In this document: one piece after another, positions 3,154 to 64,000 of the stretch
How the letters are laid out: the number at the start of each line of letters is the position of its first letter
Numbering within the stretch: the first letter of the stretch is position 1
IMG/VR virus record: IMGVR_UViG_3300028048_000063
Location: 1-64,000 of that record
Strand: one strand, 5' to 3'
From: a virus
Lineage: Duplodnaviria > Caudoviricetes
Length of the DNA: 64,000 nt
Program-made: the position numbers and the translations under genes
The notes under the pieces: model-generated
Seen by the model: the letters and a program-made list of their open reading frames with translations, nothing else
What the model was told of the DNA's origin: nothing
Databases searched by the model: none

Positions 3154-3164
3154 CATAAAAAGTC

Positions 3165-3906: not shown

Positions 3907-3908
3907 AA

Positions 3909-4284: not shown

Positions 4285-4297
4285 TAAAGTATACTAA

Positions 4298-10353: not shown

Positions 10354-10359
10354 AGATTT

Positions 10360-10540: not shown

Positions 10541-10617
10541 TGGGTGCAGAGGTAGGATTCGAACCTACAACCTTCAGGTTATGAGCCTGAGAAGCTACCG
10601 TTTGCTAGCACTCTGCG
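10541..10617 (-). tRNA. tRNA-Met(CAU), initiator-like
   Basis: C1:A72 mismatch, TCAGG-CT-CAT-AA-CCTGA anticodon arm, GTTCGAATC T-loop, encoded CCA. Confidence 0.88.
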
Positions 10618-36100: not shown

Positions 36101-36298
36101 TGTATAACTTTGTCCTGTTGGTGGATCAAAAGCTCCGGAAGCGATGATTTCTGTGTTACTATTAATAGTAACCGATGTATGCTGTGGATCTAAGTTTTCA
36201 TACTTTTTAAGTATCAAATATAAATTATCAGATGTACCAAGATATGTATATTTTGCGTAACTTTCTTCAACCTCAGTTTCAATTAAAAGTTGATCCAT
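30116..36298 (-). CDS. BspA/TpLRR-type leucine-rich-repeat protein, 2060 aa
   Basis: Dozens of LxxIxIPxxVxxIGxxAFxxCxx repeats punctuated by LPFVG...LFGYIFG...YYIP modules; no obvious signal peptide. Confidence 0.92.
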   Translation of the reverse strand: MDQLLIETEVEESYAKYTYLGTSDNLYLILKKYENLDPQHTSVTINSNTEIIASGAFDPPTGQSYTTLFSLTLNKKLKKIQKDVFKHCKITTNLQYLGTVDEWASIEFENYYANPLSVKQGTCQIINFGSDIQINAQVIQSFTFVCYRFQKLTLKANVKEVKNGAFLNCSFTQGGMVRTPNILNWGQIKFESKYSNPVYYSKNLCNTSDTPFTTVLINSDISDYAFINDLSITTVNINNNADINYVGRDAFSGCSNLNISRDGMGKYLGATNKILIGVDEAVNTLMTGNYQAVAVDIQTKHEGYLDTNKTILGNYNGELANTTKFILNNAFYDCNLTEITIPNTVVYIGSEAFKNSAELINIVIPDSVKYIGPRCFEDCKSLKSITFGSGITEIPANICSSCDELETTTIPNTVTKIDTGAFNNCIKLKRIVIDPSNSQLAYIGDRAFLQCRSLGIVEDIDADDFNNNKVMIPATVKYIGEQAFYDCNNLRKIEVYFDKDTVVKEDSFACCFNIVEVYAPNLGAESVDDSAALLLGSPTLGYLGYYAAEVVLDSQDKDKGVLKKTDSDFIIYGQSDGNGGIDYDTSSVVAYEGTETDIEIPEVTRIKPYAFYNQKELIKISLSDTTNRLKSVGTSAFEKCDKLQLTEDGQGLRYIGSRNSPYMILVSTNPERKDINSVDINEYTKFICQSALSNYTALQTITTSCSSDKNISEGISKKEYAVPFSNIFGKNLVDTDHNIVSTLKFYADNGEIYSSNYYIPSDIRKITIKNDSIIPDGSFLKYTNLTEVVFDSSLTRVGSGAFDNCKKLTTISITNSNDLTSIGTGAFNNCIKLTSNFMLPKLAKIGASAFYNCELISNIDTHGNGISNTYITKLPENVFYNCVKLESDFVLPNLANIGARAFYNCEKIEVININTDHNGVNKNTLITTLPDQVFYNCQKLESDFYLDNLTTVGSGVFNNCSEITSLKLDGTFMTLEAGAFYGCGKLETLLLPFVGTQRSSSTASANTLFGVIFGSTSYIGALSPTTQAWSDSQTADYYIPTSLKYVNIAGANSIMLYGAFSNCQNIQEITIAGVHTVIRKKTFYHCSNLTSIDISNYNLENIEEQAFAECPLLTSQFTLSNVTTLGARVFYNCSSLITVTLNSQKISVIPAEAFYGCSNLTSSFNLNMTSIGEGAFDGCAKIPSATISSTITTINPRIFKNCGLLASSFNLPNITSIGESAFEGCSEIVGMEIGNTTTHLNNNITQLPNKVFYNCSKMVAAFNLPNLTNVGSDVFYNCSEITSVKLDGTFTTLAEGIFYGCGKLTTLLLPFVGGNKNEQSASRSTLFGYIFGTNNYTGSSPVTQVYYDGGSSTSVYSETYYIPDSLTQIEITRALKIYYGAFYDCIHIQNLILSSSTLTYIWGSCVSGCYGLTNITIPFIGADQTSSGRYFMHIFGGRQYSESYKVTLSGFNYYLPLSLTNITVLGGDITSHAFQGCSHVTHITINGDATTVSNAAFAYCTGLTNIVLPSTITIFGQQAFYQTAALTSLSILSNITSFGDMCFTASGLTNVTLNNSVVSLPYGIFENCAGLTSITLPNSITTVGTGVFRGCSNLTTAILSNNLTNIGEEMFANCSNLNNINIPNSVIQIGTRAFKNCTHFTSLTIPTSVTTILGSVLNGCSGLRTLTIPYVGNSVNPTQASENTLFGYLFGTDEYQGGTLTYQYYSSTGSRGYYIPNNLRSVTVSGGKLMYGAFYGCSILNTIKVKGSVPAVGDCAFYNCSGVRSCTLPNTITTVGNNAFYGCNRVDSLILPSIQSIGDSAFKNCTSLHAMNDDFAVAIPSTVTSIGSEAFNNCPEIYSITLPFVGKSATTSTASEQLFGYIFGSTQYTGGTIITQQGSDGNSYSACLPDDLHTVTITGTTVPAYGFYGCSTISSFNISNVTSIGEHAFQNCNNILFQTISIGNTNISTSLGVYAFKGCSYLQSVTIYSTLVEPGASNTAALGSGLFESTNLRSLSLRQTSRRASIQFRSNIFVNSTTTGVAVSVPSTLLSTYQNDSGWSSYTTYASVTGFTQVTLSSLS

Positions 36299-48061: not shown

Positions 48062-49315
48062 TTAACTTACCACGAATGGTAGGTTATTTAAATTACTAAA
48101 ACTAATACTCATTTGATTAGAAAAATCTAAAGAACACGACACCGATTGTAATAAGAATCGTTCATACGTAAGATTAAAGAAATCATCTGAGATCGTTATA
48201 ACATTATTAACCTCTAAAAATGGGTTAAATACTACATTAGCAGAAGTTGTACTTTTTAAGATTAATACTTGTCTAAGCTCATATTCTGCACGTTCGTCTG
48301 CTAATACTTGCGAATATATGTTTGCGTCATTAATAATATTGCCAGTCCTGTATCCAATCCTCTTTCCACATAATGGAGAGGCCGGATCGTCATTTTTTTT
48401 ATCAGAAAGATAAGTGCCATTTGACTCAGAGCTACCAATAACTATAACACGATTAATAATTGAATTATAATCTAAGCTAAAGTCTAATTGAGATATATCA
48501 CCTTTGGAAGTCTCAAAACTGTAAATAAGTGGTTTATCTTGATCTGTTGTAACTTCATTAATTGGTATATATACTAAATTACCATTAGAATTATAAAATA
48601 CTTCTGCCGATAATTGTGTTGCAATTTCTAACAACAATGAAGCAAAATTTTCTCCAGCATTTTTTGAAATTTTAGCTTGTGTCTTCTTACCATTAAAGCT
48701 TGAATGATATATTAGGTCTTGTGGATCAAGAACAGATCCGTTTCCCATATCTGTTCTTAATATATCATGAATTAAGCTTTGTATATCGGTCCCTGTGGGA
48801 ATTTCATAGGTTGAAGATAAAGTACCTGTGCTGCCTTCAAATAAAGAAAATTTGTCAGCAGCAGAAATACTTACTGTTCTAGATGACTCGGTCATAGAAG
48901 GGGTTATGCTATTAATAACAAAAACCCCTTTTTTAAACCAATAAATTACGTCATCTGAAACACGTAGCCCCATATCAAAACGTAATCTTGTCCCTGCCCA
49001 GAAGGTATTGATATTCGGAGTATATTTTCCATCATAATTATACAGCGTAAAGCTCAGAGATCTTCTTTGACCATTTTGATAATTTTCGCTATAACTTCCC
49101 CCAATACCTATATCTTCTAGTGGGATTTCATAATTTATAGTTTCATCTGGATATAGTACAAAGATCCTAAAACATGATGTAGTAATATTATTTTTTATTC
49201 CCCATTTAATTGTTTCTACATCGGTATCAAGACTTACCATACCACCTTTCTTTTCTGTAGTGACCAATACTGTGTCGCCACTAGCAGAACTAATATATTG
49301 TGTAATTGCGTTCAT
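48062..49315 (-). CDS. putative baseplate hub/tail protein
   Basis: RRSLSFTL, GVFVI, DKFSL, FYNSNGNL, INRVIVIG, PFLEVNNVI pattern; lies downstream of the tape-measure gene. Confidence 0.65.
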   Translation of the reverse strand: MNAITQYISSASGDTVLVTTEKKGGMVSLDTDVETIKWGIKNNITTSCFRIFVLYPDETINYEIPLEDIGIGGSYSENYQNGQRRSLSFTLYNYDGKYTPNINTFWAGTRLRFDMGLRVSDDVIYWFKKGVFVINSITPSMTESSRTVSISAADKFSLFEGSTGTLSSTYEIPTGTDIQSLIHDILRTDMGNGSVLDPQDLIYHSSFNGKKTQAKISKNAGENFASLLLEIATQLSAEVFYNSNGNLVYIPINEVTTDQDKPLIYSFETSKGDISQLDFSLDYNSIINRVIVIGSSESNGTYLSDKKNDDPASPLCGKRIGYRTGNIINDANIYSQVLADERAEYELRQVLILKSTTSANVVFNPFLEVNNVITISDDFFNLTYERFLLQSVSCSLDFSNQMSISFSNLNNLPFVVS

Positions 49316-49341
49316 AAATCACTACTCCTTTATTATTTTTA

Positions 49342-52300
49342 TTATTTATGATATGGGGAAGACCACTCAGGTAACCCAATATTTGCTTTAATCTTGCTAT
49401 CATTATCTGTATAATCGCCGTAAATAATAATATTATCTACGGTATCAACTTGTCGCCATTCAAAACTGACGGTGTCTGGTGTCTTGTAAATGAAATTTTG
49501 TGGAGTTGTTGAATTACTAATTAATTGTACTATCCAAGAACGTCCTTTAATATCTCTTAATAATTTTGGATTTTTAGAATAACAGAAATCATACCACTGT
49601 TCAAGCATTTTGGCTTTTTCATTAGATGATAAAGGTATAATTCTACTCTTACCCAAACGTTCTGTATAAGCTACTTTGGAACTTAATATTAATTCGCTAC
49701 CTATAAGCGCTGAAACAGATCCAGATTCATAATTTTTATTACCAAAACCAAATTTAGAGAAACGACCTAGCGTAGCGAATTCTTCTTTACTTATGTTTTG
49801 TGTTTGAGAACCTGTTTCTAAATTATATTTAAATAGCCAAATGTTGTTATTATCAACTTTATACTGTTTCTTAATAATTGGTGCGTCTATATCTATTTCT
49901 TCAGGTATTAACTCAGCAATAGACCAACACTCCCAATGTTCATGTACTGGAGCTCCTGTACCAACAGAGGTATCTTCATTACCAGGCGCCAAATATCCAG
50001 CGTAGGTATTATCTTGTACTATTCTGAAATTATCTTTAGTACGCCAAATTTGACCTTCAAAATTTGCATATGTTTGTTCAGTCGTATCTAAACCATATTC
50101 TAGTGTTTTAGAAGTTGTAGGATAAATAATATATTGATATGAGCGATCATTAGCTATATTAAAATCTCTAAACCATTGTCTGTTATCAGATATCAACACA
50201 GGTTGCCACTGTCCTTTATATGTTCTAAAGGCTTCTGTAAGTGTGAATGTTCCATCAGTATATCCGCCAGTACTTACATCTCCAACTTGAGGAGGATTAA
50301 ATTGATAAGTATGTGTTGTATCTTTATCTATGTACACATAGGACTGATTTAATGGTACAGGTGTATCATAGTGATAAATTGGGCCACTTGTTTTATTCAT
50401 ATAACATAATCCATCTTCTGGATTGTAATAACACTCTATTTGGTGACCAGGGTTTTGATATACATCATATTCTCGTCTATAAATGCTATACAAATAAATA
50501 TTGTCTTCGTCTTCTTTCGTAAATTTAGATTCTTTATAATGTACAATATTTGAATGTGTTGAACAATCATATGTAACTGTAAATTCGCCACCTTCATGAA
50601 TAAAACTAGAGATCACACCAGGATTAATTTCAAGGATTAATTCATATGTAATTATATCTCCAAAATTGTTTTCTACCAATAATACTGCACGATAAATTAC
50701 ATCTTCAGCTAAATCATTAGATAACCCAAAGAAAACGACGCCCATATCTTTATCATAACGTTTACCTGTATCTTGTACAATATTACCATCTTCATCATAC
50801 AAAATCCATTGATAGCTTTCCCAAGCAGATTGTCCTAAACCATTATAAACACCCTGCAATTTAACTGATCTTCCTGTTACGATTGCTTGTGCTTTATAAT
50901 CTACTGTTAATAAATTTTTTGTACCACCCTCTTGATCATAGACTAAAAATTCTAATGAAGCAGGATCTGTATATTGTGGTCTTACATAGAAATAAAAACT
51001 ACCCCCGACAATACGCAAATCACTGTATGACTCATTATTTTTCTTTAGAGTAATATATGGAGTTTGATATGAATAAAATGGATTTTCGTCAGATGTTTTA
51101 AAGAAAGATCTAATATCATATGTCCAAGGTATTGTATCATCATCTTTTTTATACGAAGCTAATGTTAGTGGAGATGCTAATTCATTATGAGTAATATAGA
51201 AAATTTTATCGTTGAAGCTTTTTATAGTAATCCATCTAGTAGGATCCGTTGGATCACCTTCTGTAGTATATTGTACAGTTTTATTATTTAGTAAAGCTAG
51301 CTTCATATTGTTTTGTAAAGTTTTCCATGGTGATATAAAAGTTTTTGTGGATGTATTATATAACACAACAGCTGTATGTAAATCCCAACTTTCTACTATG
51401 GAATTGTCACTAACTTTTAATACATCTTCCTTGTATTGATCCCCATCTAAAATATAATAATATCCATTTTCTATAGAGGTAATATTTTTTAAAGTATAGG
51501 TATTGTTAGATACTGTGTCTACCGTACCATACTTTTTGTCTTGATATAATATTGTATCACCAACACGAATTGTTTTACCGTCTACTACTAAATTATCATG
51601 AGTATCACCTGAAGTACTATTATTATCATATAAATTAAAAGTTTTAGTTAATTTTTGTGGAAATAGTAATGCAGGTTTTTCTTGTGTGAAATATAATAAA
51701 CTTGTACCAGATGTAGTATTATTAATATCCCATAATGTGCCGCCAGCAGAAGCCAACGACTGCATATTCATATTACGGCTATCGTTTGTACCATTTTGAC
51801 AATAAATAACCTTACCTAAATAATTTGCCCATTGATTATAACCATTAACTCTTTTTAAACACCACTTAGTCTCAGGATCTGAAACTCCAGGCGTTTCTGA
51901 TTGTACGGTAATTGCGTTGATCTGATAGACACCATTTTCATATTTACGGTTTTGTTTTGCTAACAAAATTAAATCGCCATCATTAATTAAATTTACATAG
52001 CTTTGATTATTTATATTGGTGATATCTATAGTAATATAACGGTTTGTAACACTAACTGTTTTATCTGAGGCATCAATTGTCCAGGCTTTCCATTTTTGAT
52101 TTAACAATCTCTCTTCTTCTTGTGTACCAGTTGTCTCGATCGTATATCCAGTAAAATCTACGTTTTCATTAAAACAAAAATTAACAATATCTGTATCTAA
52201 AATTTCATTAGGATTAGAAGAATACTTAAAGAATTGACAATACTTGGCATTAGTTGGATTTATATCGGCCGTTGTTAATGTATCTTCACGTGGGTATACA

Positions 52301-53499
52301 TGTCCATATACAGAATCATATGTCTTAATATATGTACGTGTACCGCCAGACATTATAGCTATAGGAGCTGTACCAGATACTTCGATATATTTCCCTTGTA
52401 ATACTACAGGAGCATTGTCAATACCTTCTGGTAAATAGATTTCACCATTTGCATCATCATCACTGCTAGCTATTTGTATACGGTTTGGTGTAGTTCCCAT
52501 AATTTTACCTGAAGATAGCGTCATATCAAGCCACTCTGGGTTTACATCACTATATATAATAGATTTTGCATCAATATGCTCATCGTCAGATATGGAGTTA
52601 CCCTGATATAAAGTAATTTCCCACTTATAAGTACTATTGTTAGAATCTAATAATACTATATTATTATTAGAAATATCTTTCCATGTACCACCTGTCGAAC
52701 TTTTAATATATATAATATGATTAGATCCATCTTGTGTAATTTGATATGTATAATTATGTAGAGTTTTGCCTTTAGTTAATGTGATTTGCTTTTCCATTGT
52801 AGGTACATTAATCTTAACAAGTTTAGTGGTCATGTCTACTGTTGTGGAATTTAGATGACCAGTAACTTCATATAGACCAGAAATATCAACATTGGCATTA
52901 TTAATTTCTTTACTACCAAGTACGAGAACAACCTCTCCAATCAAAATGGATTCACTATCAAGCATAATATTATTAGCTTTAATGTCTTCTGCACTTGCAT
53001 CTGGCCAACTGTATGTCAATGTTTCTGTAGTGGTATCATAATCCCAATATTGTATGTCGTCCATCTTTGTATCAAGACCTGTTTCCGTTTCTGAAGCAAT
53101 CACATGATCTGCTAAATATTTTGGTTGATAATAAACTGCGTTGTAAGAACTTAACACTTTATTATCTGCACTTTGGAAAAATGGTATTCTTAAAGTTGTA
53201 CCATTTAATCCAGAGTTTATAGTTAATTTTTCTGAATCGTACCCCAACGATGAAATTTTTAGCTCATCAACTGGACTAATATATCCTTCTATAGCTTCGC
53301 CATTTTCATCAACAGGGAATACTTGTTTATTGTCACTAGATAAAATCCTAATTTTATATCCAGTAATTTCCGTATTTGAGCTATCTATTTGACAAGTTAG
53401 AAATTGAACTGGTTGTGACGTATAATCTTTATATTGTGCAGTTCTAATATCTATACTATTCAAAAATGGGTAGCATAATGTTGCTTTATATACTGCCAT
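49342..53499 (-). CDS. large tail/baseplate structural protein
   Basis: 1385 aa, beta-rich, ILLAKQNRKYENGVY motif, C-terminal Dit-like KNPKLLRDIKGRSWIV; directly after the tape-measure gene. Confidence 0.65.
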   Translation of the reverse strand: MAVYKATLCYPFLNSIDIRTAQYKDYTSQPVQFLTCQIDSSNTEITGYKIRILSSDNKQVFPVDENGEAIEGYISPVDELKISSLGYDSEKLTINSGLNGTTLRIPFFQSADNKVLSSYNAVYYQPKYLADHVIASETETGLDTKMDDIQYWDYDTTTETLTYSWPDASAEDIKANNIMLDSESILIGEVVLVLGSKEINNANVDISGLYEVTGHLNSTTVDMTTKLVKINVPTMEKQITLTKGKTLHNYTYQITQDGSNHIIYIKSSTGGTWKDISNNNIVLLDSNNSTYKWEITLYQGNSISDDEHIDAKSIIYSDVNPEWLDMTLSSGKIMGTTPNRIQIASSDDDANGEIYLPEGIDNAPVVLQGKYIEVSGTAPIAIMSGGTRTYIKTYDSVYGHVYPREDTLTTADINPTNAKYCQFFKYSSNPNEILDTDIVNFCFNENVDFTGYTIETTGTQEEERLLNQKWKAWTIDASDKTVSVTNRYITIDITNINNQSYVNLINDGDLILLAKQNRKYENGVYQINAITVQSETPGVSDPETKWCLKRVNGYNQWANYLGKVIYCQNGTNDSRNMNMQSLASAGGTLWDINNTTSGTSLLYFTQEKPALLFPQKLTKTFNLYDNNSTSGDTHDNLVVDGKTIRVGDTILYQDKKYGTVDTVSNNTYTLKNITSIENGYYYILDGDQYKEDVLKVSDNSIVESWDLHTAVVLYNTSTKTFISPWKTLQNNMKLALLNNKTVQYTTEGDPTDPTRWITIKSFNDKIFYITHNELASPLTLASYKKDDDTIPWTYDIRSFFKTSDENPFYSYQTPYITLKKNNESYSDLRIVGGSFYFYVRPQYTDPASLEFLVYDQEGGTKNLLTVDYKAQAIVTGRSVKLQGVYNGLGQSAWESYQWILYDEDGNIVQDTGKRYDKDMGVVFFGLSNDLAEDVIYRAVLLVENNFGDIITYELILEINPGVISSFIHEGGEFTVTYDCSTHSNIVHYKESKFTKEDEDNIYLYSIYRREYDVYQNPGHQIECYYNPEDGLCYMNKTSGPIYHYDTPVPLNQSYVYIDKDTTHTYQFNPPQVGDVSTGGYTDGTFTLTEAFRTYKGQWQPVLISDNRQWFRDFNIANDRSYQYIIYPTTSKTLEYGLDTTEQTYANFEGQIWRTKDNFRIVQDNTYAGYLAPGNEDTSVGTGAPVHEHWECWSIAELIPEEIDIDAPIIKKQYKVDNNNIWLFKYNLETGSQTQNISKEEFATLGRFSKFGFGNKNYESGSVSALIGSELILSSKVAYTERLGKSRIIPLSSNEKAKMLEQWYDFCYSKNPKLLRDIKGRSWIVQLISNSTTPQNFIYKTPDTVSFEWRQVDTVDNIIIYGDYTDNDSKIKANIGLPEWSSPYHK

Positions 53500-53674: not shown

Positions 53675-56600
53675 TTATGATCTACGCATATTTTTTGTTA
53701 AATTTGCTCTAGTCTTAATTGAATCAACAAACGCCTCAGCATCGAAAGATCCGTCAGCAGTTACGTTCATTGTAAGTGAATTAATATTAAATGATTCATC
53801 TACAACATCAGCTTGACTTGAGCCAATATGATCTGGCATAATTGATGGTCCAATGAGACGTAAAATTGCAGGAGCAACTTCGCCAAGAGCCCACAAATTC
53901 TTAGTAATATCAGCAGGAACTATACCTGTACGAGATGGCAAAGCTGTTATGGTACCAGAAGGAGTAATAATCGCTTCTGTACCAAGCTCATTAATTAATG
54001 ATGTTTGAATTCCATTAATTCCTAATGTTCCATATTTGTGTTCTTTAGCTGTATCTGAATGAACTAATCCGCCAGAAACCCAGTCAGTACCAACATTTTT
54101 TGCAACCTTGAGAGCAGTGTAAGAACCATCAGAATTTACTAATACATATTCATGACCACCAAGCATACCCCCAATAATCAGTTGTTGACCAGATGTTAAA
54201 GATACGTCTTGAGATAATTGCTTAAATAATTTTTCTGGGGTTCTGAGGTTCTTATAATCTTTCCACATATTGCGTCCTTTATAACCAGCAACCTCTTTTA
54301 AGTTATAATGGTTGACTGTCCCGTCTGCATTTAAAACAAAGGCAATTGCATTTTCCTCTGTTTGGAACCCATTTCCACCAGACCAAGCATCAGCACCACC
54401 ACCATGATCTTGAAAAATATCTTGGACAATCCAATTTGCAATACTTGTTGCTTCATTTTGCTCTGAATCGTAAAGTGTACGAACCCAATCCCCTTTATCT
54501 CCTAAATTATAAACAGTTGCATCATATTTTTCTAATCCAGTAGTTTGCGTTTTAGCACTACCTGCATTAATTACAGAAGCTTTCTCTCCTGGCTGTTTTC
54601 CAAAAGTAGATGTTAATCCTTCTGTTTCACTGTAAGAAATGTTGCTATATTGATCTTTATTTCCTTGATATTGATTTATAGCCGCAGCTTGGATTTGATT
54701 CATTGTTCCACCTAAAGATTCTGCCTTTTTTGCTTGTTTTTGATATTTCAACAATGCATCAGCAGTGCCAGTGTTTTCATACTCTAAAAGTAATTTTGCA
54801 GCCTCGTCAACTGCTTTGTTAGCTTGTTCTTCTTGTGTACCGAATTTATCTTCGAGCATATCTGATAGCTTTTTTACAGAACCTTGTGTTGCAGCTGATG
54901 CGCTAGCAAGTCCTGTCATATTGTTTTGGAAGCCACCTTCACCAGATTTAAGTATATATTCTTCAAAAGCTTCGCTTTCTTTACGTTGTAACTCTAAAGT
55001 TTGCTCTGCGTACATATTATCCCACTGATCTTTAATTGTTTGTAAAATATTGGTTTGCTGTTCAAGCATTGAGATTTGCTTATTTTGTTGTACATTTTCT
55101 AGATCTTCTTGAGCTTTAGCGATAGCGCCTTGGTCGGCTTCATATACGAAACCAACACCCGCTCTATACACACGTTGTTTTTCATTAAGAGCATTGTCTA
55201 GTCGTAATTGTGCTTCTATTAATTGATTTTGATATTCTCTTTGTTTATTTATTTCTTGTAAAGCTGATTTTTGAGCTTCTAAGTTAGACAATTGTTTTTC
55301 TAATTCTTTACTCTGTGTCTCTGCATATCTTTGTAAAAATTCTTTGTAGGCATCAGAAACAATATTATACTCATCACCAACTTCTTTAATAATTTGTTTA
55401 AGCTCTGTGACTCCAGATACACTTTCATCATATCCTAAGACTCTGTCCCACAATTTTTGTAAATTTTCTGCACCAATTGTTTCTATTAAATCTTCAATAT
55501 CTTGTGCTTTCTTAGCATCTGTTTCTCTTATTTTATTAATGCCAGACTTAATAGTGGCGTACCCTACATCGTCCTTAGTCTTTAATTCTTCATAGAAAGC
55601 GCTGGAATTCATAAGTTCACTAAATTGAGAATTGAATCCAGCCTCAATTAAACCACCAATCTTTTTCATAATTTGTTCCATTAATCGAGGAGTATCTGAC
55701 ATGTATGCGATAAGCTCTGGATATTTAGATACCAATTCACTCATCCATTTAGTAGCAGACTTTGTACTATCTGCAATTTCAGACATTAAAGAACCGTATT
55801 CTTCAATAGAAGTTACGTCTTCTGTTGTTGATTGTAAAATTTCAGATAATTTTAGCATTCCTTGAGAACTTTCCATGCTCGCAAGTTCGTCAACAGACAC
55901 ACCTAACGCATTTGCAAAGTTTTGTAAACGACGTTGTACATATTCGTCTGCTGCGTCTTGACGTAATGTTTCAGACAACGTATATGCTTTACCAGAAAGG
56001 ACTTTTTCAAAACCTTCGTCTGCTGCAGAAAGCTCAGACTCAATCATCTGTTTAGCATATTCTGTAACATCCCCGGCTGGATTATCTTTATCTGTAAACG
56101 TATAATATCCTTGTAAAGCACCACTTTCTAATAATTGATCAGCGACTAATTTAATAATAGTAGAGGCTCCAATATTCTTTTTTTGTTCATCAGATAATTC
56201 ATCTATAAAAGATCCAACTCCCGCTAAACGTTCTTCTTCTGTAGCTAATCTCCATTGATTTGTTTGTGAGTCTTTAATAAATTGAGCTTGTGCTATTGCT
56301 TCTCTTGTTCTTTCTTTATTAGTAGTTTTAATATTTTGTAATATCATAGAAGTTGTATCAGATATTACTGAAAGCATTTCATCAACGCTAGTTAGACGAG
56401 CCTCTGCCCCTTCTACTTTATTATCAATATCTTGTAATATTTGATTACGTTCGTTTCTAAGATCTTCTTCTTTTTCAAAAACATTTTTAGCATTCCATTC
56501 TTGGAATTCCTCTTCTTGTTTTTTAGCAATAGCTGCTTCTGTCTCTTTAGTTCCGATAGCTGCGCTACCAACAGTACTTAAGACAGCACCGCCAGCTAAA

Positions 56601-59600
56601 AGACCTGCCCCAAGCAATGCGCCGACACCCGTCGCCATTAAAGCTGTGCCTACTGCCATCATAGCCGCACCACCTACAGTAGCTGCTACTGTGCCTCCGT
56701 GGTTTTTACCACTTAAAGCATCTGCTTTACCTTCGTTGGAAAGTCCTGTAGCAGAGTCATATCCTTTTTGACCTTTTCTATATGCAAGATACTTATTTTT
56801 ACTTATATCAGTATTTTGTTGCTTGTATAATGCGGCTTCCCTTGCTTTAGCATTCGCTTCATTTTCTGTTTGTAATTGTGCTATTTTTAGCCTTCTAGCA
56901 GCATCTTTTCTCTCTTTTTCGTTACCGTTTTCATATTTATCTAATAAAGAATATACTGTTTCTCCTCCTAACTTTTGTTGTATTTTAAGACGAGCTTCTT
57001 GATTATCTTCATTATATAATGTTGATGTAATTGCTTCTATGGCTTCTCTCATTTTTTCTGAACTAAAGTTATCGTTAGAAGCAATATCAGATAATGTATT
57101 AACGCTACCTGAAATATCTTTCATAGCTGAAACAATTTTAGATGATTTTTCGGCTAATGTATCCATGCTGTCTTTGACGCGATCAATAGATGCCATTACT
57201 TTTTGAGCATGGGCTTCGCCAATAATCTGGCCCACAACAGGAACTAAAGTTGTCCATGCTTGAGCGATTTTACCACCTTGCTTACGTGCTGCTTCACTAG
57301 ATTGTACATCCTTCCCTTCTGCGTTTTTATGTGTCTGTCCAATCATTTGATATGCTGTCCATCCAGCCATAACTTGATTAAGAGCAATAGATGCGCCAGC
57401 TACAGCTGCACCTGCAGCAGCACCGCCACCACCAGCTTTAGCTACGCCTTTAGAGAAATTGGCTGATACTTTACCACGGAAGGTATTTGGAGATAATGCT
57501 TTTGAAGCTTTACCTGGTCCAATAGATCCAACAGATGCTGGCTGTTGCATATTCCAAATTTGGCTAGCTTTTTTAAGATCTCTATTTTTTAATAATGCTC
57601 CCCATGCACGAATTTTTCTAGTACGATATAATTGATTCTCTTTTGCAGTATTAGCATATTGTGTATTATAACGATCAATATCTGTCGCTGTTAAATTAGA
57701 CAAATCACCTTTTTCTTTTGCTGCTAATGTATCATTAAATTTAGATTGATAATATGCTTTAGCATGATCAGAAGGTGTACCTTTTTCTAAATCAGAATAA
57801 TATTGCAATTTAGAATCAAATACGCTATTAACAAGAGTGTTGTTTTTAGCACCAGTGCCCATATTTAATCCGGTTGAAACTACAGCGCCTGTATTATTAA
57901 CATTGTTAGCTTGCCCACCTGTGCCTAGGAAACCTCGAATACGTTGTTGTAATTTTTGACGCATTGTTAACGTATTATTCGATCCGCCACTTGTTAAACG
58001 TTTGGCTAAGACACCAGCTTCTCCTCTTAAGAACATTCTCATCTTGCTACCAAAATTTAAACCTTGAGGAAGATCTGATATTCTACCAAAAACATCTTTT
58101 CCTAAAATTTTATTTAATCCTTTAGCGATAAATGATTTGCCAGATAATGCTCTGAAGTTTTGTATAGTAAAGAAGATATTAACTAAATGCTTAATTAATT
58201 TTGGTAATAACTCGACAAGTTTAGTGCCAAATTTTACTATTTTTGTTAATAATTCATTGACCTCAGATCTGTTCATGAAGTCTTGCAATGCCGCGGTAAA
58301 TGAGTTTTTAGCTGCTTCAAAAGATTCTTGGTATGCATTACCATACTTCTTTTCAGCAGTACCTTTAGAATTTTCTGAAACTTCTAATAAATCTTCATAT
58401 TTATCCCAGTTTTGTAATAATGTTACGAAAGCTTCTTGTTGTCTAATACCAGCAAAAGCGGTAGCAACGGCTTTTTGAGAAACTCTATCTAGGGTTCCCC
58501 ATTTTTCTGCAATCTCACCTAAAACTTCGTCGAAATCTTTAAATTCAAGGTTACTCTTTCTAATAGAGATACCGAGTTTATTTAAAACTCTTTCAACATC
58601 GTTGATATTTACACTTTCATCTGAAGATTCAGAATCGACATTTAATTTACCATAAGCACCAGCTTTAACATTACCATAACGTGAAATAATAGTTTTTAAA
58701 GCCTGACCAGCACTTGATCCTGACATCTGTGTTACGTCAGAAATTGTTGCTACATATGCAGCAGCTTGGTCGATGTTTACACCTGCCAAACTACCTAAGT
58801 TAGCAAATTGTGCTAAACCTTGTGCAATTTCACCAGCAGATGTTGCTGCCTTCATATCAATAGCTGTTAATTTATCAACAACATCCATTGATTCAGAAGC
58901 TTGTAACTTGAACCCCTTCAACGCACTTGTTAAGCTTTGTGTTGCTGTAGAAGCATCCATCATACCTAACTTGCTTAAATACATTGAGGATTTAACAAGA
59001 TCAAGAACTTCTGCAGTCTCATAACCCTGTCTCAACCATTCTACAGCACTACTTGCAACTTCTGTTGTTGTTGCCCCTATAGCTTTACCAAGGTTTGCAT
59101 ACTCTGTAATTAAAGCTCTCGTACTTGTTTTACTATCACCAGTAACGATTCGCAAATTTGCCATAACTTTATCAAGAGCTATAGCTTGAGCGATTAACTT
59201 AGATATACTTTGTATTAATCTCCTTAAAACCATATGGAGACCATAGCCTTTGGCTAATCCAGCTACAGTTGCGCCGATTTTGCCTTCAAAACGATCAATG
59301 ACACCAGGTTTATTATTTAAGACTTTTAGTCTTTCACTATATAACAACCTAGCTTTATCTTCTTCTAAAGCATTTTGATCGTCTTTGCCTTCATGCTTAG
59401 ATTGTAATTCATAATTTTGTTTTTCTTGCTCTGCAACTTCAAGACGAGCTTGTAATTCTTCACGTTCGATTTGTAATAATCTTCTCTGTGTAGGATCTGT
59501 CGTTCTATTATAACTTTCAGTATTTTTATCTAAATTAAATAATGCTTCATAATATCCACCGTATGCCTTGAAAGCTGCTGATTGACGCTGTGTTTTTCCT

Positions 59601-62600
59601 TGTGCTATACCTAATTTAGTAAGTCCTTCTGCTGTTTGATCAACATATGCAGCATTTGGGGCACTCTTTTGAATATTATCGAGAATATTTTGTAATCTAG
59701 TTTTTTCTGCTTGTGTTAAACCTTTCTTAGTAGCTAAAACTTTTTGAATATTCTTTTGATAGCTATCGATATAGTTATTGATTTCTGTGTCTAGTGTATT
59801 CTTTATATTATTTAACTCTAACTCTAGTCTACTTCTCTCTTCTGGGCCTAGTATAGCATTCTCATCATTTAATTGTTTATCAATAATAGCATATCGTTGC
59901 TCAAGACTTGATTTTTGACTGTATAGTTCTTGTAAATCACTTAAGTTATCATATACACCCTGTTTCTTTTGTAATGCTTGGATAGTTTTTAATTTTTGTT
60001 TATATGTTTTAAAACTAGTAGTATCTCCACCGAGCGACTTATCTCCATATATAGCTTCTTCTCTGTCTATTATAACTTGATTTAAAGCAATTGCATCAGA
60101 TAGCGCTGTGATTTGTTCATCTATCTCACTAGTATCACGCCCATTCTTAGCTAAGCCTGTTTGTTTAATTTTTAATTCGTCTAACGCTTTTTGATATTTT
60201 ATATTTTCTTTTTGCGCTTTAAACCACTTATTTAGGCCGAATGTTCCTTGTCTGTGTTGTTGCTTCCAGTCATTATCTGTTGAGCTATTTATTACAGTAT
60301 TAAATCGTTGTTTAAACGTATCAAAGTCGTCAGTCATTAAAGAATGAACCAAAATTCCTGCATCTTTATCGCTTAAACCTATTTCTGTAAAACTCTTAAT
60401 CATATCTTGCTGTGAAGCAAATTTCCCCGCTCTAACGATACCTAAAGCTTCTAAAATACCATTAGTACCTTTGTTAGTGAAGAAATTATCACGCAACTGT
60501 GTTAACTCTGTTTGTTCCTCTGGGGTGATTGTATGATCCGCTTTTTTATCTTCTAAAGCGTTCATTCTTAATGCATCGTTTCTGTATTTCACCATAGCTT
60601 TATGGGCCGCTAATTGCTGAGCTTTTAATTGCGTTGTGGTACCGCTTCCTTGTGATGATACAGATGTAATATATTGTTGAACGTGTTGTAATGCTTGGAT
60701 TTGTTCTGCTTCGTCTTTATAAATAGCACTACTAGGATTTTTACGCATTCTGGCGAATATCTCTTGAACGAAAGGATCTTGAATGGCTCTCTTAAGATCT
60801 ACACGACTAGCTTCTGTAATACCAGTCATTGCACCTTTATTTAAGAATATTTCAATATCGTCTGCCAATCCAGCCATTGTTAAAATTTCTTGTACTGTCT
60901 TAGCATCTCCACCATTTAATGTATATAACGCTTCCCAGATATCGGCACCTTTACCAACTGATTTTCCATCAGTATAACCTCTGAAGCTACCTTTTGCGCC
61001 AAAAAGCGAGTCAAGAAGTTTTTGGTTCTTTTGAGTAATATGTCCTTTACCTGTCCTGGTATCAGTTCGAATTTTACGTAAAACAGATTTTTCTTGATTT
61101 GTTAATGTTTCTTCTAAGATACCTTGCAATCCAGTAGCCATAGAAGCATAGAACATTGTTTGTAAAATATTAGTTCCGGTCGGAGCCCCGGCTTTATTGG
61201 CAGTTTTAATATCCCCAATACTCCAAATTAATCTACCAGTTTGCTCAGCTTTAACCTGCGTTTGTAATTTATCTAAAACTTGTTTTTCATCTTTAGATAA
61301 TTTACTCTTATCTACACTAGCTAACGCTTTTTCTAAATTATCTCTTGATAAATTTTCAGTATCGCCAGGTACCCACTGATAAGCAGCAGCTTCTGCCGCC
61401 AATGATTGCCAATATGTTGAGCCAACATCTCGTCTCCCCCAACCAAAAATAGAATTATCAATACGGCCATAGCCTCTACCATAATCTGTTAAAGCCCCTA
61501 TCAGTCCAACTTCAGAACTAAACTTAGCATTTTTCAATGCCTTAGCGTCAATTGTTGTCCTACCTCCTTGGGTTTTAGTTAAACCAAGAGCTCTAATAGT
61601 ATTCACGGCTAATGATAAACCTAATTTTTTAAGATCATTTTCTGCATCTAAAAGATCAGAAGCCACACCAGTTGGATTATATCTCCTCATGACGTCAAAA
61701 TATTTTTTTATTTGTACGCCAGCACCACCATGGTCTTCTTTATCTTTTTGATTGGGTTTTTTATTCCACTTTGTGTTTAAAGTGGTACCAATCTTTTCAT
61801 TTAATTTCGTAACTTCATCATCCGTAATTGTATCAAAAAGACCTTTACTAAATATATCCATTAATTCAGCTGGACTTTCTAAAAGATCTTGTGCAATTTT
61901 ATGAGCAATATTACCTTTTTCAATAATTCTAAATGTATTTAAATATTGCTTTTGTGCTTCTAATGAACCAAAATCTAAATTTTTATCAACAATATCTCTG
62001 GTTTGTGCTTCATAATCGTAATGATTTTTGTTGTAATAATATGGTAATGTATTACCTAAAATACGAGTAGGGGTTAAAGCGCTCTTATCAAAATCGAAAC
62101 TCCCACCTTTAGCAGCAAAACCTTTATATGCTGCCATGGTATTTAATCCCATACTTCTACGATTAAATAATTGTTCAGTAGCTTGTTTATTTATTTCGTT
62201 TAATTCTAATTCTTGCTGTTTAAGACTTACGGAATCTAAATAGTCTTGTGTAAACCAGAACGTTTTACCATCGTCTGATATGATCGCCCCATTAGCAATC
62301 ATCTTTTGAATTTGCTCGTCAGTAAATCGACCATTTGGTCCAGCTGCTTTACCAACATTAAAAAACGTATTTTCTGAAGCTTTATAAATTGTAGCAGCTT
62401 TTGGTAAAATAGCACGCTTGTTAGCCCATATGTCGGTTAAAGATGCGGCCTTAATTGTTTTACCATTTTCACCTAAAATAGATATTGGATTTTTCTTTAA
62501 TGCACTATTTAAATAATCTACAGCATTGCCTATACTGTTTTCTGTTATTTTAATATTACTTAAAGCTTTTTCTGCTTTCTTTGGATCTATAAATTCATGT

Positions 62601-64000
62601 TGATCATTCATCTTTAGATCAGGCAATATACTCTTTAATGTATTACCATCTAACCCAAAAATGCTACCTAAACCGTTTAAATACCCTGTCTGATCTTGAA
62701 ATTTTTCGGCCAATAATAACATTTCAGCAATTGGCAAAATTCCCAATCTGGTTTGAGCTTGATCGTCCCCGAATAATCCTAATCTACCGCTTTTAAAAAT
62801 CCCAGCTTTTTGTGCTTTTTTAATAATGTTCTTAACTTTTGCACCGCTATCCCATGTGTTTTTATCATTGATTGCGGCGTATAAATCTGATAACTGACTT
62901 TCGAATCCAATTGCTTCATCTGCTGACATCTTTTTTGCAGATATACTCGCTTGTTCAAATATACTTAAAAAATGCCCTAATAAGTTTGATGCCGCAGAGA
63001 ACTTACTTTCTTCTGCCGTGCCCCATGACGATGACTTATCATGCATAGCATTCATGAATCCTTGACGAACATTACTAAACATACCAACATATGCCTTACC
63101 AGTCTTAGTTAAAATAACATCTCGTGCCTGGTCTTCTTCTGATGGGAATAAGTCCTCTAATGTTTTTTTATCTGGTGTCTTAGGACGTCCTTCGTTAAAT
63201 AAACGTTCGTATGCAGTCAATCTTGCTACAGTATCTTGCATAGCTTTTACTTTATCAAGCTGACCCGCACCAACAAGTGCACCAACAAGTGTGTCTCCAT
63301 CAAAGTCTGCGTTTAATAATCTAATTAAAGATTCATCACCGCCTACTATACTATGTTTTTCTTTACCCCATAAAGGGTTAACTAACAATTTTGCAGCTAA
63401 AACGTCTTTATCACCTAATAAACTTGGATATCTATTAAGCAAAACAGCTAAACCTCTAGATAAACTTTGGTCTGTACCTTTACCAAGAGTTATGCTATCA
63501 ATAATTTTATTTTTTAGCCAGCCTTGTTGAGATCTTACTAATCGTTTGTCAAATCCTTCTTTATCCTTATTTTCTTCTACAAATTTTTGTAATCCTGTGT
63601 CCATTTGGGCTTGTACTTCTTCTTTTGTTAAACCCATAATGTCCATATAGTAAGCCATTAATTGATCTGACCATCCTTCAACTTCACCTTCTGCTGGACT
63701 AAGAAGTTGATTCATCATATGTCTGGAGACAACTATAGCATTCTTTGTATATGCCTGTAAATTTGCATTTACATCTATAGGAACGCCAGCTTGTTGTGCT
63801 TGCGCTTGTCTCTGCATTATCTTATCATAATCAATTGTTGCAAAGTCAATAACTTTTCCTTGGAAGGAATGTCCTAAAGCAACTTTAGTAGCTTGGTCAT
63901 ATGTAGAAGAATCTTTTAATGTCAATTGTTCTAATTCTTTATCACGAAGTTCTTGAACTTTTTCTGCTGCTTTTGTTGCTATTTCTTTTCTATTTGTTCC
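53675..64000 (-). CDS. giant tape-measure protein fused to a double-psi beta-barrel RNA-polymerase region and a PD-(D/E)XK nuclease-like domain (5'-truncated)
   Basis: Frame open to the window edge; VLLNRYPSL and NADFDGD; GNIAH/GRID/GDIKT/QTMFY; TP901-type TMP core (EVASSAVEWLRQG...VVDKLTAID...SGSSAGQALKTIISR); TM segments; C-terminal INELGTEAIITP. Confidence 0.88.
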   Translation of the reverse strand, partial: GTNRKEIATKAAEKVQELRDKELEQLTLKDSSTYDQATKVALGHSFQGKVIDFATIDYDKIMQRQAQAQQAGVPIDVNANLQAYTKNAIVVSRHMMNQLLSPAEGEVEGWSDQLMAYYMDIMGLTKEEVQAQMDTGLQKFVEENKDKEGFDKRLVRSQQGWLKNKIIDSITLGKGTDQSLSRGLAVLLNRYPSLLGDKDVLAAKLLVNPLWGKEKHSIVGGDESLIRLLNADFDGDTLVGALVGAGQLDKVKAMQDTVARLTAYERLFNEGRPKTPDKKTLEDLFPSEEDQARDVILTKTGKAYVGMFSNVRQGFMNAMHDKSSSWGTAEESKFSAASNLLGHFLSIFEQASISAKKMSADEAIGFESQLSDLYAAINDKNTWDSGAKVKNIIKKAQKAGIFKSGRLGLFGDDQAQTRLGILPIAEMLLLAEKFQDQTGYLNGLGSIFGLDGNTLKSILPDLKMNDQHEFIDPKKAEKALSNIKITENSIGNAVDYLNSALKKNPISILGENGKTIKAASLTDIWANKRAILPKAATIYKASENTFFNVGKAAGPNGRFTDEQIQKMIANGAIISDDGKTFWFTQDYLDSVSLKQQELELNEINKQATEQLFNRRSMGLNTMAAYKGFAAKGGSFDFDKSALTPTRILGNTLPYYYNKNHYDYEAQTRDIVDKNLDFGSLEAQKQYLNTFRIIEKGNIAHKIAQDLLESPAELMDIFSKGLFDTITDDEVTKLNEKIGTTLNTKWNKKPNQKDKEDHGGAGVQIKKYFDVMRRYNPTGVASDLLDAENDLKKLGLSLAVNTIRALGLTKTQGGRTTIDAKALKNAKFSSEVGLIGALTDYGRGYGRIDNSIFGWGRRDVGSTYWQSLAAEAAAYQWVPGDTENLSRDNLEKALASVDKSKLSKDEKQVLDKLQTQVKAEQTGRLIWSIGDIKTANKAGAPTGTNILQTMFYASMATGLQGILEETLTNQEKSVLRKIRTDTRTGKGHITQKNQKLLDSLFGAKGSFRGYTDGKSVGKGADIWEALYTLNGGDAKTVQEILTMAGLADDIEIFLNKGAMTGITEASRVDLKRAIQDPFVQEIFARMRKNPSSAIYKDEAEQIQALQHVQQYITSVSSQGSGTTTQLKAQQLAAHKAMVKYRNDALRMNALEDKKADHTITPEEQTELTQLRDNFFTNKGTNGILEALGIVRAGKFASQQDMIKSFTEIGLSDKDAGILVHSLMTDDFDTFKQRFNTVINSSTDNDWKQQHRQGTFGLNKWFKAQKENIKYQKALDELKIKQTGLAKNGRDTSEIDEQITALSDAIALNQVIIDREEAIYGDKSLGGDTTSFKTYKQKLKTIQALQKKQGVYDNLSDLQELYSQKSSLEQRYAIIDKQLNDENAILGPEERSRLELELNNIKNTLDTEINNYIDSYQKNIQKVLATKKGLTQAEKTRLQNILDNIQKSAPNAAYVDQTAEGLTKLGIAQGKTQRQSAAFKAYGGYYEALFNLDKNTESYNRTTDPTQRRLLQIEREELQARLEVAEQEKQNYELQSKHEGKDDQNALEEDKARLLYSERLKVLNNKPGVIDRFEGKIGATVAGLAKGYGLHMVLRRLIQSISKLIAQAIALDKVMANLRIVTGDSKTSTRALITEYANLGKAIGATTTEVASSAVEWLRQGYETAEVLDLVKSSMYLSKLGMMDASTATQSLTSALKGFKLQASESMDVVDKLTAIDMKAATSAGEIAQGLAQFANLGSLAGVNIDQAAAYVATISDVTQMSGSSAGQALKTIISRYGNVKAGAYGKLNVDSESSDESVNINDVERVLNKLGISIRKSNLEFKDFDEVLGEIAEKWGTLDRVSQKAVATAFAGIRQQEAFVTLLQNWDKYEDLLEVSENSKGTAEKKYGNAYQESFEAAKNSFTAALQDFMNRSEVNELLTKIVKFGTKLVELLPKLIKHLVNIFFTIQNFRALSGKSFIAKGLNKILGKDVFGRISDLPQGLNFGSKMRMFLRGEAGVLAKRLTSGGSNNTLTMRQKLQQRIRGFLGTGGQANNVNNTGAVVSTGLNMGTGAKNNTLVNSVFDSKLQYYSDLEKGTPSDHAKAYYQSKFNDTLAAKEKGDLSNLTATDIDRYNTQYANTAKENQLYRTRKIRAWGALLKNRDLKKASQIWNMQQPASVGSIGPGKASKALSPNTFRGKVSANFSKGVAKAGGGGAAAGAAVAGASIALNQVMAGWTAYQMIGQTHKNAEGKDVQSSEAARKQGGKIAQAWTTLVPVVGQIIGEAHAQKVMASIDRVKDSMDTLAEKSSKIVSAMKDISGSVNTLSDIASNDNFSSEKMREAIEAITSTLYNEDNQEARLKIQQKLGGETVYSLLDKYENGNEKERKDAARRLKIAQLQTENEANAKAREAALYKQQNTDISKNKYLAYRKGQKGYDSATGLSNEGKADALSGKNHGGTVAATVGGAAMMAVGTALMATGVGALLGAGLLAGGAVLSTVGSAAIGTKETEAAIAKKQEEEFQEWNAKNVFEKEEDLRNERNQILQDIDNKVEGAEARLTSVDEMLSVISDTTSMILQNIKTTNKERTREAIAQAQFIKDSQTNQWRLATEEERLAGVGSFIDELSDEQKKNIGASTIIKLVADQLLESGALQGYYTFTDKDNPAGDVTEYAKQMIESELSAADEGFEKVLSGKAYTLSETLRQDAADEYVQRRLQNFANALGVSVDELASMESSQGMLKLSEILQSTTEDVTSIEEYGSLMSEIADSTKSATKWMSELVSKYPELIAYMSDTPRLMEQIMKKIGGLIEAGFNSQFSELMNSSAFYEELKTKDDVGYATIKSGINKIRETDAKKAQDIEDLIETIGAENLQKLWDRVLGYDESVSGVTELKQIIKEVGDEYNIVSDAYKEFLQRYAETQSKELEKQLSNLEAQKSALQEINKQREYQNQLIEAQLRLDNALNEKQRVYRAGVGFVYEADQGAIAKAQEDLENVQQNKQISMLEQQTNILQTIKDQWDNMYAEQTLELQRKESEAFEEYILKSGEGGFQNNMTGLASASAATQGSVKKLSDMLEDKFGTQEEQANKAVDEAAKLLLEYENTGTADALLKYQKQAKKAESLGGTMNQIQAAAINQYQGNKDQYSNISYSETEGLTSTFGKQPGEKASVINAGSAKTQTTGLEKYDATVYNLGDKGDWVRTLYDSEQNEATSIANWIVQDIFQDHGGGADAWSGGNGFQTEENAIAFVLNADGTVNHYNLKEVAGYKGRNMWKDYKNLRTPEKLFKQLSQDVSLTSGQQLIIGGMLGGHEYVLVNSDGSYTALKVAKNVGTDWVSGGLVHSDTAKEHKYGTLGINGIQTSLINELGTEAIITPSGTITALPSRTGIVPADITKNLWALGEVAPAILRLIGPSIMPDHIGSSQADVVDESFNINSLTMNVTADGSFDAEAFVDSIKTRANLTKNMRRS

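Follow-up and report, generated by a model that had tools for sequence, protein, structure and literature searches.

The giant tape-measure protein (TMP) encoded at this locus raises the question of whether its N-terminal part is an RNA polymerase (RNAP) that the phage could deliver through its own tail. The gene comes from a record of 150,079 bp from an uncultured sample, and the window, that is, the whole stretch of DNA that was analysed, comprises its first 64,000 nucleotides (record bases 1-64000). A sequence-only reading had noted beta'-type polymerase motifs and a tape measure in one uninterrupted frame of more than 3,440 codons.

One reading frame joins the N-terminal module to a tape measure

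Within the window the frame is indeed open from 53675 to the edge (3,441 codons), and in the full record it starts at an ATG at 67213, yielding a protein of 4,512 residues, here called RNAP-TMP (Table 1). This ATG is preceded by its own Shine-Dalgarno sequence, AAAGGAGG, and a terminator-like hairpin. A frame check placed all the peptides quoted in the earlier reading in this single minus-strand frame, at the positions claimed for them. The gene sits in a tail module: two overlapping ORFs of 88 and 177 aa lie directly upstream, in the usual place of small chaperone-like ORFs, and a tail gene lies downstream, as had been claimed, encoding the 417-aa tail protein of phrog_1887; the same gene order is found in the relative L006. 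The C-terminal half of the protein is a bona fide TMP. Its core, earlier placed at about 58300-59170, is the PF10145 domain, and the tape-measure region matches annotated TMPs in 133 phage records by tblastn, mostly phages of Bacillota. For the Gly/Ala-rich transmembrane segments of the earlier reading, a Gly/Ala-rich and a hydrophobic segment were likewise recovered, the latter with a Kyte-Doolittle window above 1.5 at residues 3508-3554.

Table 1. Positions of the features in the record, whose first 64,000 bases are the window
Feature	Residues	Position	Strand	Remarks
RNAP-TMP gene (P0002), whole	4,512 aa	53675..67213	-	window part 53675..64000
N-terminal 1,071 aa	1,071 aa	64001-67213	-	beyond window; presumed beta-like half
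Best upstream candidate motif, HAGKKYGMPLSKGGMPVRYGYREFNSL	795-821	64751-64831	-	conserved in 6 homologs
Candidate beta'-like double-psi barrel (DPBB-A)	~1110-1313	63275..63886	-	HSFQGKVI to NADFDGDTLVGAL, ~130-aa insertion
HSFQGKVI		63848-63871	-	frame check
NAIVVSRHMM		63713-63742	-	frame check
VLLNRYPSL	1257-1265	63419-63445	-	counterpart of beta' LLNRAPTLH; R1261 and P1263 invariant; aligned to beta' 420-428
NADFDGD	1301-1307	63293..63313	-	candidate Mg-binding catalytic loop; N, D, D, G, D invariant in 8 homologs
KTGKAYVGMFSN		63071-63106	-	frame check
EQASISAKK		62930-62956	-	frame check
Post-catalytic motifs KTGKAYVGMFSNVRQ and FEQASISAKK	1370-1384; 1419-1428	62930..63106	-	candidate bridge-helix region
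PD-(D/E)xK (RecB/Cas4-type) nuclease-like motifs	1765-2022	61148..61921	-	E.GN..H..AQ, SEVGL, YGRID, IGDIKT, LQ..FY
Tape-measure region	2346-4288	54350..60178	-	PHROG TMP families 4211, 28, 14441, 167
PF10145 (PhageMin_Tail) core	2707-2921	58451-59095	-	104.7 bits vs gathering cut-off 33.2
Gly/Ala-rich segment and hydrophobic segment	3261-3278; 3506-3554	56552..57433	-	hydrophobic one probably membrane-inserting
Downstream genes		48062..53499	-	1,385-aa protein without family match; 417-aa tail protein (phrog_1887)
YonO-like RNAP (P0006)	969 aa	113787-116696		DFDGD at aa 549; PF05183 E 8e-9

The N-terminal module has 8 relatives, at 22-62% identity, from ENA and Logan metagenome assemblies; these 8 are all that the family has among 1.8 billion cluster representatives, and none comes from a cultured phage. 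The module (aa 1-1700) has no tblastn match in the 50,697 phage records of INPHARED, no shorter stand-alone homolog was found, a profile search for longer proteins returned nothing new, and scanning IMG/VR, GTDB genomes and JGI metagenomes with sequence patterns added no relatives. Annotation pipelines label RNAP-TMP proteins only as "minor tail protein". One relative, P0007 (1,766 aa), stops short of a fragment of a bacterial chorismate-binding gene that lies at the end of its contig, and no intron was found there.

The module and the tape measure form one polypeptide from a single ORF, as seen from PF10145, the PHROGs and the homologs. One might suppose that two neighbouring genes were run together by assembly or gene calling, the record being a metagenome-derived contig and some relatives having separate gene calls. 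Against this, P0003, P0004 and P0005, from three independent assemblies, are the same uninterrupted protein of 4,400-4,900 residues and align end to end with RNAP-TMP (N-terminal module identities of 61%, 44% and 32%, respectively); since the architecture recurs in independent assemblies, it is no misjoin, and the earlier claim of a fusion holds. Split genes are found in the relatives that encode P0008 and P0009, with group I introns lying in the gaps (RF00028; E values of 1e-14 to 1e-22). The splits in L007 and L009 fall inside the PF10145 region, not at the RNAP/TMP boundary, and we rejected the idea that such relatives have separate RNAP and TMP genes, the splits being introns in the TMP core. 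The gene studied here contains no Rfam element and no interrupting stop. An artefact is therefore exceedingly improbable, and the fusion is genuine and conserved.

Polymerase-like motifs of the N-terminal module

The polymerase assignment begins with a pair of motifs. Two-barrel RNAPs have an [RK]xP motif before the DxDxD loop, and RNAP-TMP has both: LLNRYPSL lies 36 aa upstream of NADFDGD, which we take to be the metal-binding DxDxD loop motif of beta'. The order and spacing of the pair are those of beta', as had been claimed, and the R, P, N, D, D, G and D of LLNR.PSL/NADFDGD do not vary among 8 homologs, even at 22% identity. Judged from these alignments, the beta'-type, putatively catalytic motif pair is under strong purifying selection. 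By itself the NADFDGD motif carries little weight, because, of 2000 shuffled versions of the protein, 15 contain D[FY]DGD (0.75%) and 276 pass a loose [RK]xP..DxDxD filter (14%); what exceeds chance is the invariance across the 8 homologs together with the profile matches to beta' subunits.

Those matches all point the same way. PF00623 (RNA_pol_Rpb1_2) is the sole Pfam family matched by more than one member of the module family, namely by 4 of 8, at a sub-threshold best E of 0.0025. Against 177,635 PDB sequences, the family profile has only three matches, all of them to beta' subunits of phage RNAPs (phiKZ, AR9), individually weak and covering the whole motif pair. With hhalign, residues 1256-1313 align to E. 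coli beta' 420-470 (E 0.003), and the stretch from DFDGD through to a common GxFSN motif aligns to a YonO-family profile (E 0.01). Structural matches of the barrel region, again individually weak, are to double-psi barrels and beta' chains, and the alignments to beta' are colinear over the whole stretch between its N-terminus and the catalytic loop. A BFVD search gave significant matches to other phage proteins (E 2.5e-6 and 6.5e-4), one annotated as a minor tail protein, and a search with ESM features listed a phage PF05183 RNAP cluster at 0.90. Nothing above threshold was found for residues 1-1700 in Pfam, the PHROGs or a phmmer search of the PDB; the ESM Atlas structure search gave TM scores of at most 0.26, and a wide VIA-align search returned mostly helical bundles. 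Of the double-psi barrel previously suggested, then, the sequence profiles and structural matches do point to beta', but the AlphaFold models are of low confidence at the barrels, the second (aa 550-1440; pLDDT 58) being worse than the first. Taking these findings together, a catalytic beta'-type barrel is supported by several concordant tests, each of them weak.

The remainder of the polymerase, including a beta-like barrel with two lysines, had been expected upstream of the window. A further 1,071 residues of the protein are indeed encoded there, but such a barrel was not located among them: PF00562 does not match RNAP-TMP, hhalign to E. coli rpoB is not significant, the profile A4 finds nothing in the PDB or Pfam, and an ESM feature search of residues 540-900 gave no usable match. 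Candidate regions are residues 594-647, 795-821 and the beta-rich 1005-1046. The motif at 795-821 could not be linked statistically to a beta subunit of any kind and has a pLDDT below 50 in both AlphaFold models, and the lysine-rich motif is absent from the P0009 alignment. Three mappings were considered for this barrel, K798-x7-K806-G against GDK-x7-KG, GGMPVRYGYREF against GGQRFGEME, and MPLSKGGMPV against MPYDENGTPV, none of them preferable to the other two.

Beyond the catalytic loop, the motifs that had been likened to the bridge helix and trigger loop are present and conserved (K, G, F, S, Q, I, S, K and K are invariant in 8 sequences), lie in long helices of the AlphaFold model and include the GxFSN that aligns with the YonO family; they are candidates for these elements, hhalign to beta' 700-960, the bridge-helix region, giving E 0.37 against 0.57 for a reversed-sequence control, no better than that control. 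The nuclease-like region also noted earlier retains conserved motifs (YGRID, IGDIKT and LQ..FY, with E1901, D2001, K2003 and Q2018 invariant in 6 homologs and about 80 aa from the D to the DxK) but has no Pfam or PDB profile match. A PD-(D/E)xK nuclease possibly follows the N-terminal module.

Phage lineage and related polymerases

The phage is SPbeta-like, which fits a Bacillota host. The earlier suggestion of such a host agrees with SPbeta-like genes and with TMP matches lying mostly in Bacillota phages; in L006, moreover, the YorF and YorH families adjoin the RNAP-TMP gene. By sequence, a separate YonO-like RNAP is encoded in the same genome (P0006, 27% identical to SPbeta YonO). In a six-frame search of the whole genome with E up to 10, the only match of PF05183 is at 114120-114734, in the P0006 gene, and the family does not match RNAP-TMP; hhalign against P0006 alone aligns the N-terminal module at the DFDGD motif only. 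RNAP-TMP thus shares with the YonO/PF05183 enzymes a phage lineage, DFDGD and the downstream GxFSN, whereas the true YonO homolog here is a separate 969-aa gene. SPbeta-type tape measures lack the RNAP-like N-terminal module (tblastn).

The closest parallel is gp96 of P23-45, a TMP-fused virion RNAP that transcribes the pre-early genes (PMC10770324). Both are giant ORFs (5,002 aa in gp96, 4,512 here) with an N-terminal DFDGD module, a C-terminal TMP and membrane segments, and both genomes have a second, stand-alone RNAP gene. According to its authors, the gp96 module has no detectable similarity to known RNAPs beyond DFDGD (PMC10770324), and this is equally so for the rest of the module here. 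The differences are considerable. DFDGD is at residue 779 in gp96 and 1303 here, where the motifs (LLNRxPSL, NADFDGD) follow the cellular beta' type. RNAP-TMP revealed no metallopeptidase, it has an additional nuclease-like segment, and its TMP core belongs to PF10145, the family seen in Bacillota phages. The phage itself has an AT-rich, SPbeta-like genome, in which the second RNAP is related to YonO and comes from a different family than gp64. The family profile aligns to residues 1-1200 of gp96 (hhalign) over only 18 columns around DFDGDTLV, with a probability of 2.5%. The proposal that the P23-45 strategy is used in a very different phage thus stands as regards the TMP-fused RNAP-like module, but not as regards gp96 homology beyond DFDGDTLV. 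In the literature covered by full-text searches, we found no TMP-fused RNAP outside the P23-45 group of Thermus phages.

The beta' subunits of phiKZ (7OGP) and AR9 (7S00/7S01) share LLNR.P(S/T)L ... NADFDGD at the same spacing; in contrast to multisubunit beta', the module here shares one chain with a tail protein, and all scores are sub-threshold. Neither zinc-binding nor clamp motifs of beta' were recognised in RNAP-TMP, and a beta partner was not identified. As in crAss-like phi14:2 gp66 and N4 gp50, the polymerase would reside within a very large particle protein and be delivered at infection, which is predicted for the present case; those two, however, are internal or ejected proteins of podoviruses rather than tape measures, and N4 gp50 is of the T7-like rather than the two-barrel kind. 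Neither was matched here in sequence or structure.

Proposed role and alternatives

We consider it rather likely that this is a TMP carrying an N-terminal single-chain two-barrel RNAP, delivered through the tail for early phage transcription. The N-terminal ~1,650 residues would be an RNAP of the two-barrel (cellular-type) class, followed by the possible PD-(D/E)xK nuclease, coiled-coil spacers, the PF10145 core, membrane-inserting segments and the TMP C-terminus. By analogy with P23-45 gp96 (PMC10770324), the protein would be housed in the tail lumen and ejected at infection; the hydrophobic segments might help form a channel through the envelope, and the end with the polymerase would arrive in the cytoplasm, where it would transcribe those phage genes that enter first, without host RNAP. 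Later transcription may then pass to the YonO-like, non-virion RNAP, the host enzyme or both. On this analogy, it is probable that the phage sends a polymerase of its own into the cell by way of the tail.

An active two-barrel polymerase could also be delivered with the TMP chiefly for another job, such as transcription-driven pulling-in of the genome, primer making or work on RNA templates, which we regard as a minority prospect. In T7 and N4 the genome is pulled into the cell by transcription, and QDE-1-type enzymes can act on RNA templates. The catalytic-barrel evidence applies equally to this alternative, the YonO-like RNAP already present could carry phage transcription, and the closest named neighbour in feature space is a PF05183 "RdRP" cluster. 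Yet gp96, the one precedent that has been studied, is a transcriber of pre-early genes (PMC10770324); the data do not separate the two roles, which are not exclusive.

It is improbable that the module is the relic of a polymerase, retained only to give structure or length to an unusually long TMP. The second barrel was not found, tape measures tolerate large insertions, and P0009 aligns without the lysine-rich motif; a relic, however, would be unlikely to keep its catalytic residues, so the invariance of the three aspartates, N, G and R..P down to 22% identity, amid surroundings that vary freely, counts against it, as do further short motifs that are equally invariant (K..G.FS, Q..IS.KK). We give still less credence to the view that there is no polymerase and that NADFDGD and LLNRYPSL are a chance resemblance in a large protein of unknown fold. 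The shuffle frequencies and the uniformly sub-threshold homology statistics would allow it, but tests of unrelated kinds single out the same 60-90 residues and one family, beta', and the motif pair is correctly ordered, correctly spaced and invariant across the family.

Returning to the tail-delivered early polymerase, we propose on sequence grounds that RNAP-TMP is a new, sequence-unrelated variant of the gp96 strategy, with probable Bacillota hosts. A bolder version, which we offer tentatively and with real doubt, is that the polymerase-TMP fusion arose independently at least two times: here a cellular-type beta/beta' enzyme, closest to jumbo-phage RNAPs, would have collapsed to one chain and become joined, together with a RecB-like nuclease, to the ordinary TMP of a siphophage of Bacillota. 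Large enzymes in general could then be delivered by way of the tail lumen, and these phages would run a host-independent cascade of two polymerases, the virion RNAP and then YonO.

So far, the P23-45 group of Thermus phages has been the sole known source of TMP-fused RNAPs. A second, sequence-unrelated lineage, if true, would make tail delivery of a polymerase, by way of a long non-contractile tail, a repeated answer rather than a thermophile oddity. It would also add to the picture of SPbeta and YonO; to our knowledge, YonO, the late polymerase, is the only one known in the SPbeta model system. Further, if the relatives infect well-studied Bacillota, the packing of a module of ~1,650 residues and its passage through the tail tube could be studied there.

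The proposed RNAP-tape-measure fusion and its relatives

The sequence-only reading had proposed that a single uninterrupted frame joins an RNA polymerase (RNAP) to a tape-measure protein (TMP). Between 53675 and the edge of the window the frame is indeed uninterrupted, and all the peptides quoted in that reading are found at their coordinates. In the full record (150,079 bp, of which the window is bases 1-64000), it reaches an ATG at 67213, lying 8 nt downstream of AAAGGAGG and with a terminator-like hairpin just upstream, to give a product of 4,512 aa (P0002) with NADFDGD at residues 1301-1307. The two overlapping ORFs directly upstream are laid out as in tail-assembly-chaperone pairs that use a programmed frameshift; the hairpin and a strong Shine-Dalgarno sequence lie between this pair and the TMP start.

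Only eight family members emerged when sets of 5.8 billion and 1.8 billion proteins were searched. The fusion is real: P0003, P0004, and P0005 (4,426-4,870 aa, all with PF10145) share the same end-to-end architecture, aligning with P0002 from the first residue to the last, and no stop, frameshift, or Rfam element occurs within the gene in this genome. Two shorter members, P0008 (2,781 aa) and P0009 (2,274 aa), end within the PF10145 region, with more TMP pieces coming after. Separate RNAP and TMP genes in these relatives are ruled out by the group I introns found in the gaps, one in the locus L009 and four in L007 (RF00028, E 1e-14 to 1e-22); hence, these relatives too carry the fused gene, with introns breaking it up. 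In L007, a DUF7487 ORF lies between the first two introns. A further member, P0007, is 1,766 aa long and terminates near the boundary of the RNAP module, beside a fragment of a bacterial chorismate-binding gene at the contig end. It could be a truncated prophage beside a host gene, which would offer a clue to the host, or a chimeric join.

Evidence for a probable RNA polymerase in the N-terminal module

Standard sequence searches with the N-terminus of P0002 returned no RNAP match; such searches were likewise silent for gp96 of Thermus phage P23-45, according to its authors (PMC10770324). The case for the proposed beta'-type RNAP is a convergence of weaker tests, none of which is decisive alone. 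Across eight sequences with identity down to 22%, invariant residues are found in LLNRYPSL (R1261 and P1263), around NADFDGD (N1301, D1303, D1305, G1306, and D1307), in KTGKAYVGMFSN (K, G, F, and S), and in FEQASISAKK (Q, I, S, K, and K). In a lenient Pfam scan of each member, PF00623 (RNA_pol_Rpb1_2), the beta' catalytic barrel, was the only family matching more than one, namely, four of the eight (best E 0.0025, aa 1212-1308). The family profile retrieved only three of 177,635 PDB sequences, all beta' subunits of phage RNAPs (phiKZ gp55 and AR9 beta'; E 0.13-0.18), aligned from G..LLNR.P through NADFDGD.L. With hhalign, aa 1256-1313 align to E. coli beta' 420-470 (E 0.003), and a six-member YonO-family profile aligns over 82 columns, from DFDGD to a common GxFSN motif (E 0.01). 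A phage cluster of PF05183 polymerases was also listed, at 0.90, by an ESM feature search. The D[FY]DGD motif occurs in 0.75% of shuffles of P0002 and by itself is not rare enough; taken together, these tests and the structure search below indicate a single fold and a single family.

A Foldseek search of BFVD with the N-terminal model gave significant matches to other phage proteins (E 2.5e-6 and 6.5e-4). These are A0A7R7G2L5 (part 2) and A0A8S5SD80 (part 1), one of them annotated as a minor tail protein of Siphoviridae sp. ctnpt50; UniProt may hold more unrecognised fusions of a tape measure with a polymerase.

The second barrel, which the sequence-only reading had placed upstream of the window, was not found by Pfam (no match to PF00562), hhalign to E. 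coli rpoB (not significant), a profile of aa 1-720 (no match in PDB or Pfam), or AlphaFold, where a second job on aa 550-1440 gave a worse model (pLDDT 58, below 50 at all second-barrel candidates). Three ways of mapping onto beta motifs can be drawn up, each incompatible with the others. The colinear beta' alignment, which begins at about aa 872, weakly suggests that aa 1-870 form the beta-like half. The earlier bridge-helix assignment performed no better than a reversed control.

Features of the giant protein, its relatives, and the genome (aa, residues of P0002; L002 and L004, stretches of the same record; other L numbers, loci of relatives)
Feature	Position	Strand	Remarks
88-aa and 177-aa ORFs	record 67302-68091; L002:14303-15092	-	11-nt overlap
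Candidate second-barrel site	aa 594-647		conserved
Candidate second-barrel site, HAGKKYGMPLSKGGMPVRYGYREFNSL	aa 795-821		conserved
Candidate second-barrel site	aa 1005-1046		conserved, beta-rich, confidently modelled
PD-(D/E)xK or RecB-Cas4-like motif series	window 61148-61921; aa 1765-2022	-	conserved motifs
Gly/Ala-rich and hydrophobic segments	aa 3261-3278 and 3506-3554		
Introns inside PF10145 core	L007:16758-19424; L009:18314-18591		none in window copy
C-terminal part of chorismate-binding enzyme after P0007	L011:15326-15763; L012:5846-6283	opposite	two independent assemblies
YonO-like single-subunit RNAP, 969 aa	record 113787-116696; L004:3788-6694	+	outside window; DFDGD at aa 549
903-aa protein	window 41446-44157	-	
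2,060-aa protein	window 30116-36298	-	
Three-tRNA cluster	window 10279-10617	-	Thr-TGT, Ser-GCT, Met-CAT

Nuclease-like region, tape measure, and phage identity

The previously noted nuclease-like region separates the polymerase module from the tape measure; in it, six homologs keep the series E.GN..H..AQ, SEVGL, YGRID, IGDIKT, and LQ..FY, with E1901, D2001, K2003, and Q2018 invariant. IGDIKT and LQ..FY resemble the (D/E)xK and QxxxY motifs of RecB/Cas4-type nucleases, but Pfam and PDB profile searches gave no match, and the assignment remains a lead. Both the make-up and the location of the C-terminal half are those of an ordinary TMP, in keeping with the proposed tape-measure core and downstream tail genes: aa 2707-2921 match PF10145 (PhageMin_Tail) with 104.7 bits (cut-off, 33.2), PHROG tape-measure families cover aa 2346-4288, and the gene is flanked by the small overlapping ORFs upstream and a phrog_1887 tail protein downstream.

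By tblastn, 133 phage records have an annotated tape measure that matches aa 2400-4512; most come from phages of Bacillota (Bacillus, Lactococcus, Staphylococcus, and SPbeta relatives). The genome also encodes a separate YonO-like RNAP (PF05183, E 8e-9; 27% identity to SPbeta YonO), whose relatives occur in Bacillus, Clostridium, Enterocloster, and Thomasclavelia phages. In five annotated phage relatives, a gene for an HU or histone-like DNA-binding protein lies one to three genes downstream of the YonO gene. Given this polymerase and the SPbeta families YorF and YorH in genes adjoining the giant ORF of the relative L006, the phage is an SPbeta-like siphophage, most likely with Bacillota hosts, in agreement with the host proposed earlier.

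Elsewhere in the window, the 903-aa protein matches DnaB-like helicase PHROGs at aa 603-862, and its aa 217-605 match PHROGs with the annotations large terminase, primase, or helicase loader; either a P-loop fusion or a helicase that carries an inserted element would fit. The 2,060-aa protein consists of a PHROG domain of unknown function (phrog_35892 and phrog_18805) repeated about ten times.

Comparison with P23-45 and a proposed role in infection

A single conserved polypeptide unites a beta'-type catalytic signature with a tape measure. Like P23-45, with its virion gp96 and non-virion gp64, this phage has two polymerases per genome, here built from different families; homology to gp96 does not extend beyond DFDGDTLV. 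By analogy with gp96 and general TMP biology, P0002 would take up its place in the tail lumen during assembly and be ejected on infection, its hydrophobic segments might contribute to a channel in the envelope, and its polymerase end could transcribe the first-entering DNA, before the YonO-like enzyme, the host RNAP, or both take over.

In full-text literature searches, TMP-fused RNAPs were described for the P23-45 group only, and the N-terminal module is absent from the cultured phages in INPHARED. Relative to the P23-45 strategy, the present version is new in its unrelated sequence, its phage lineage and probable host phylum, its cellular-type motifs, and, possibly, an extra nuclease.
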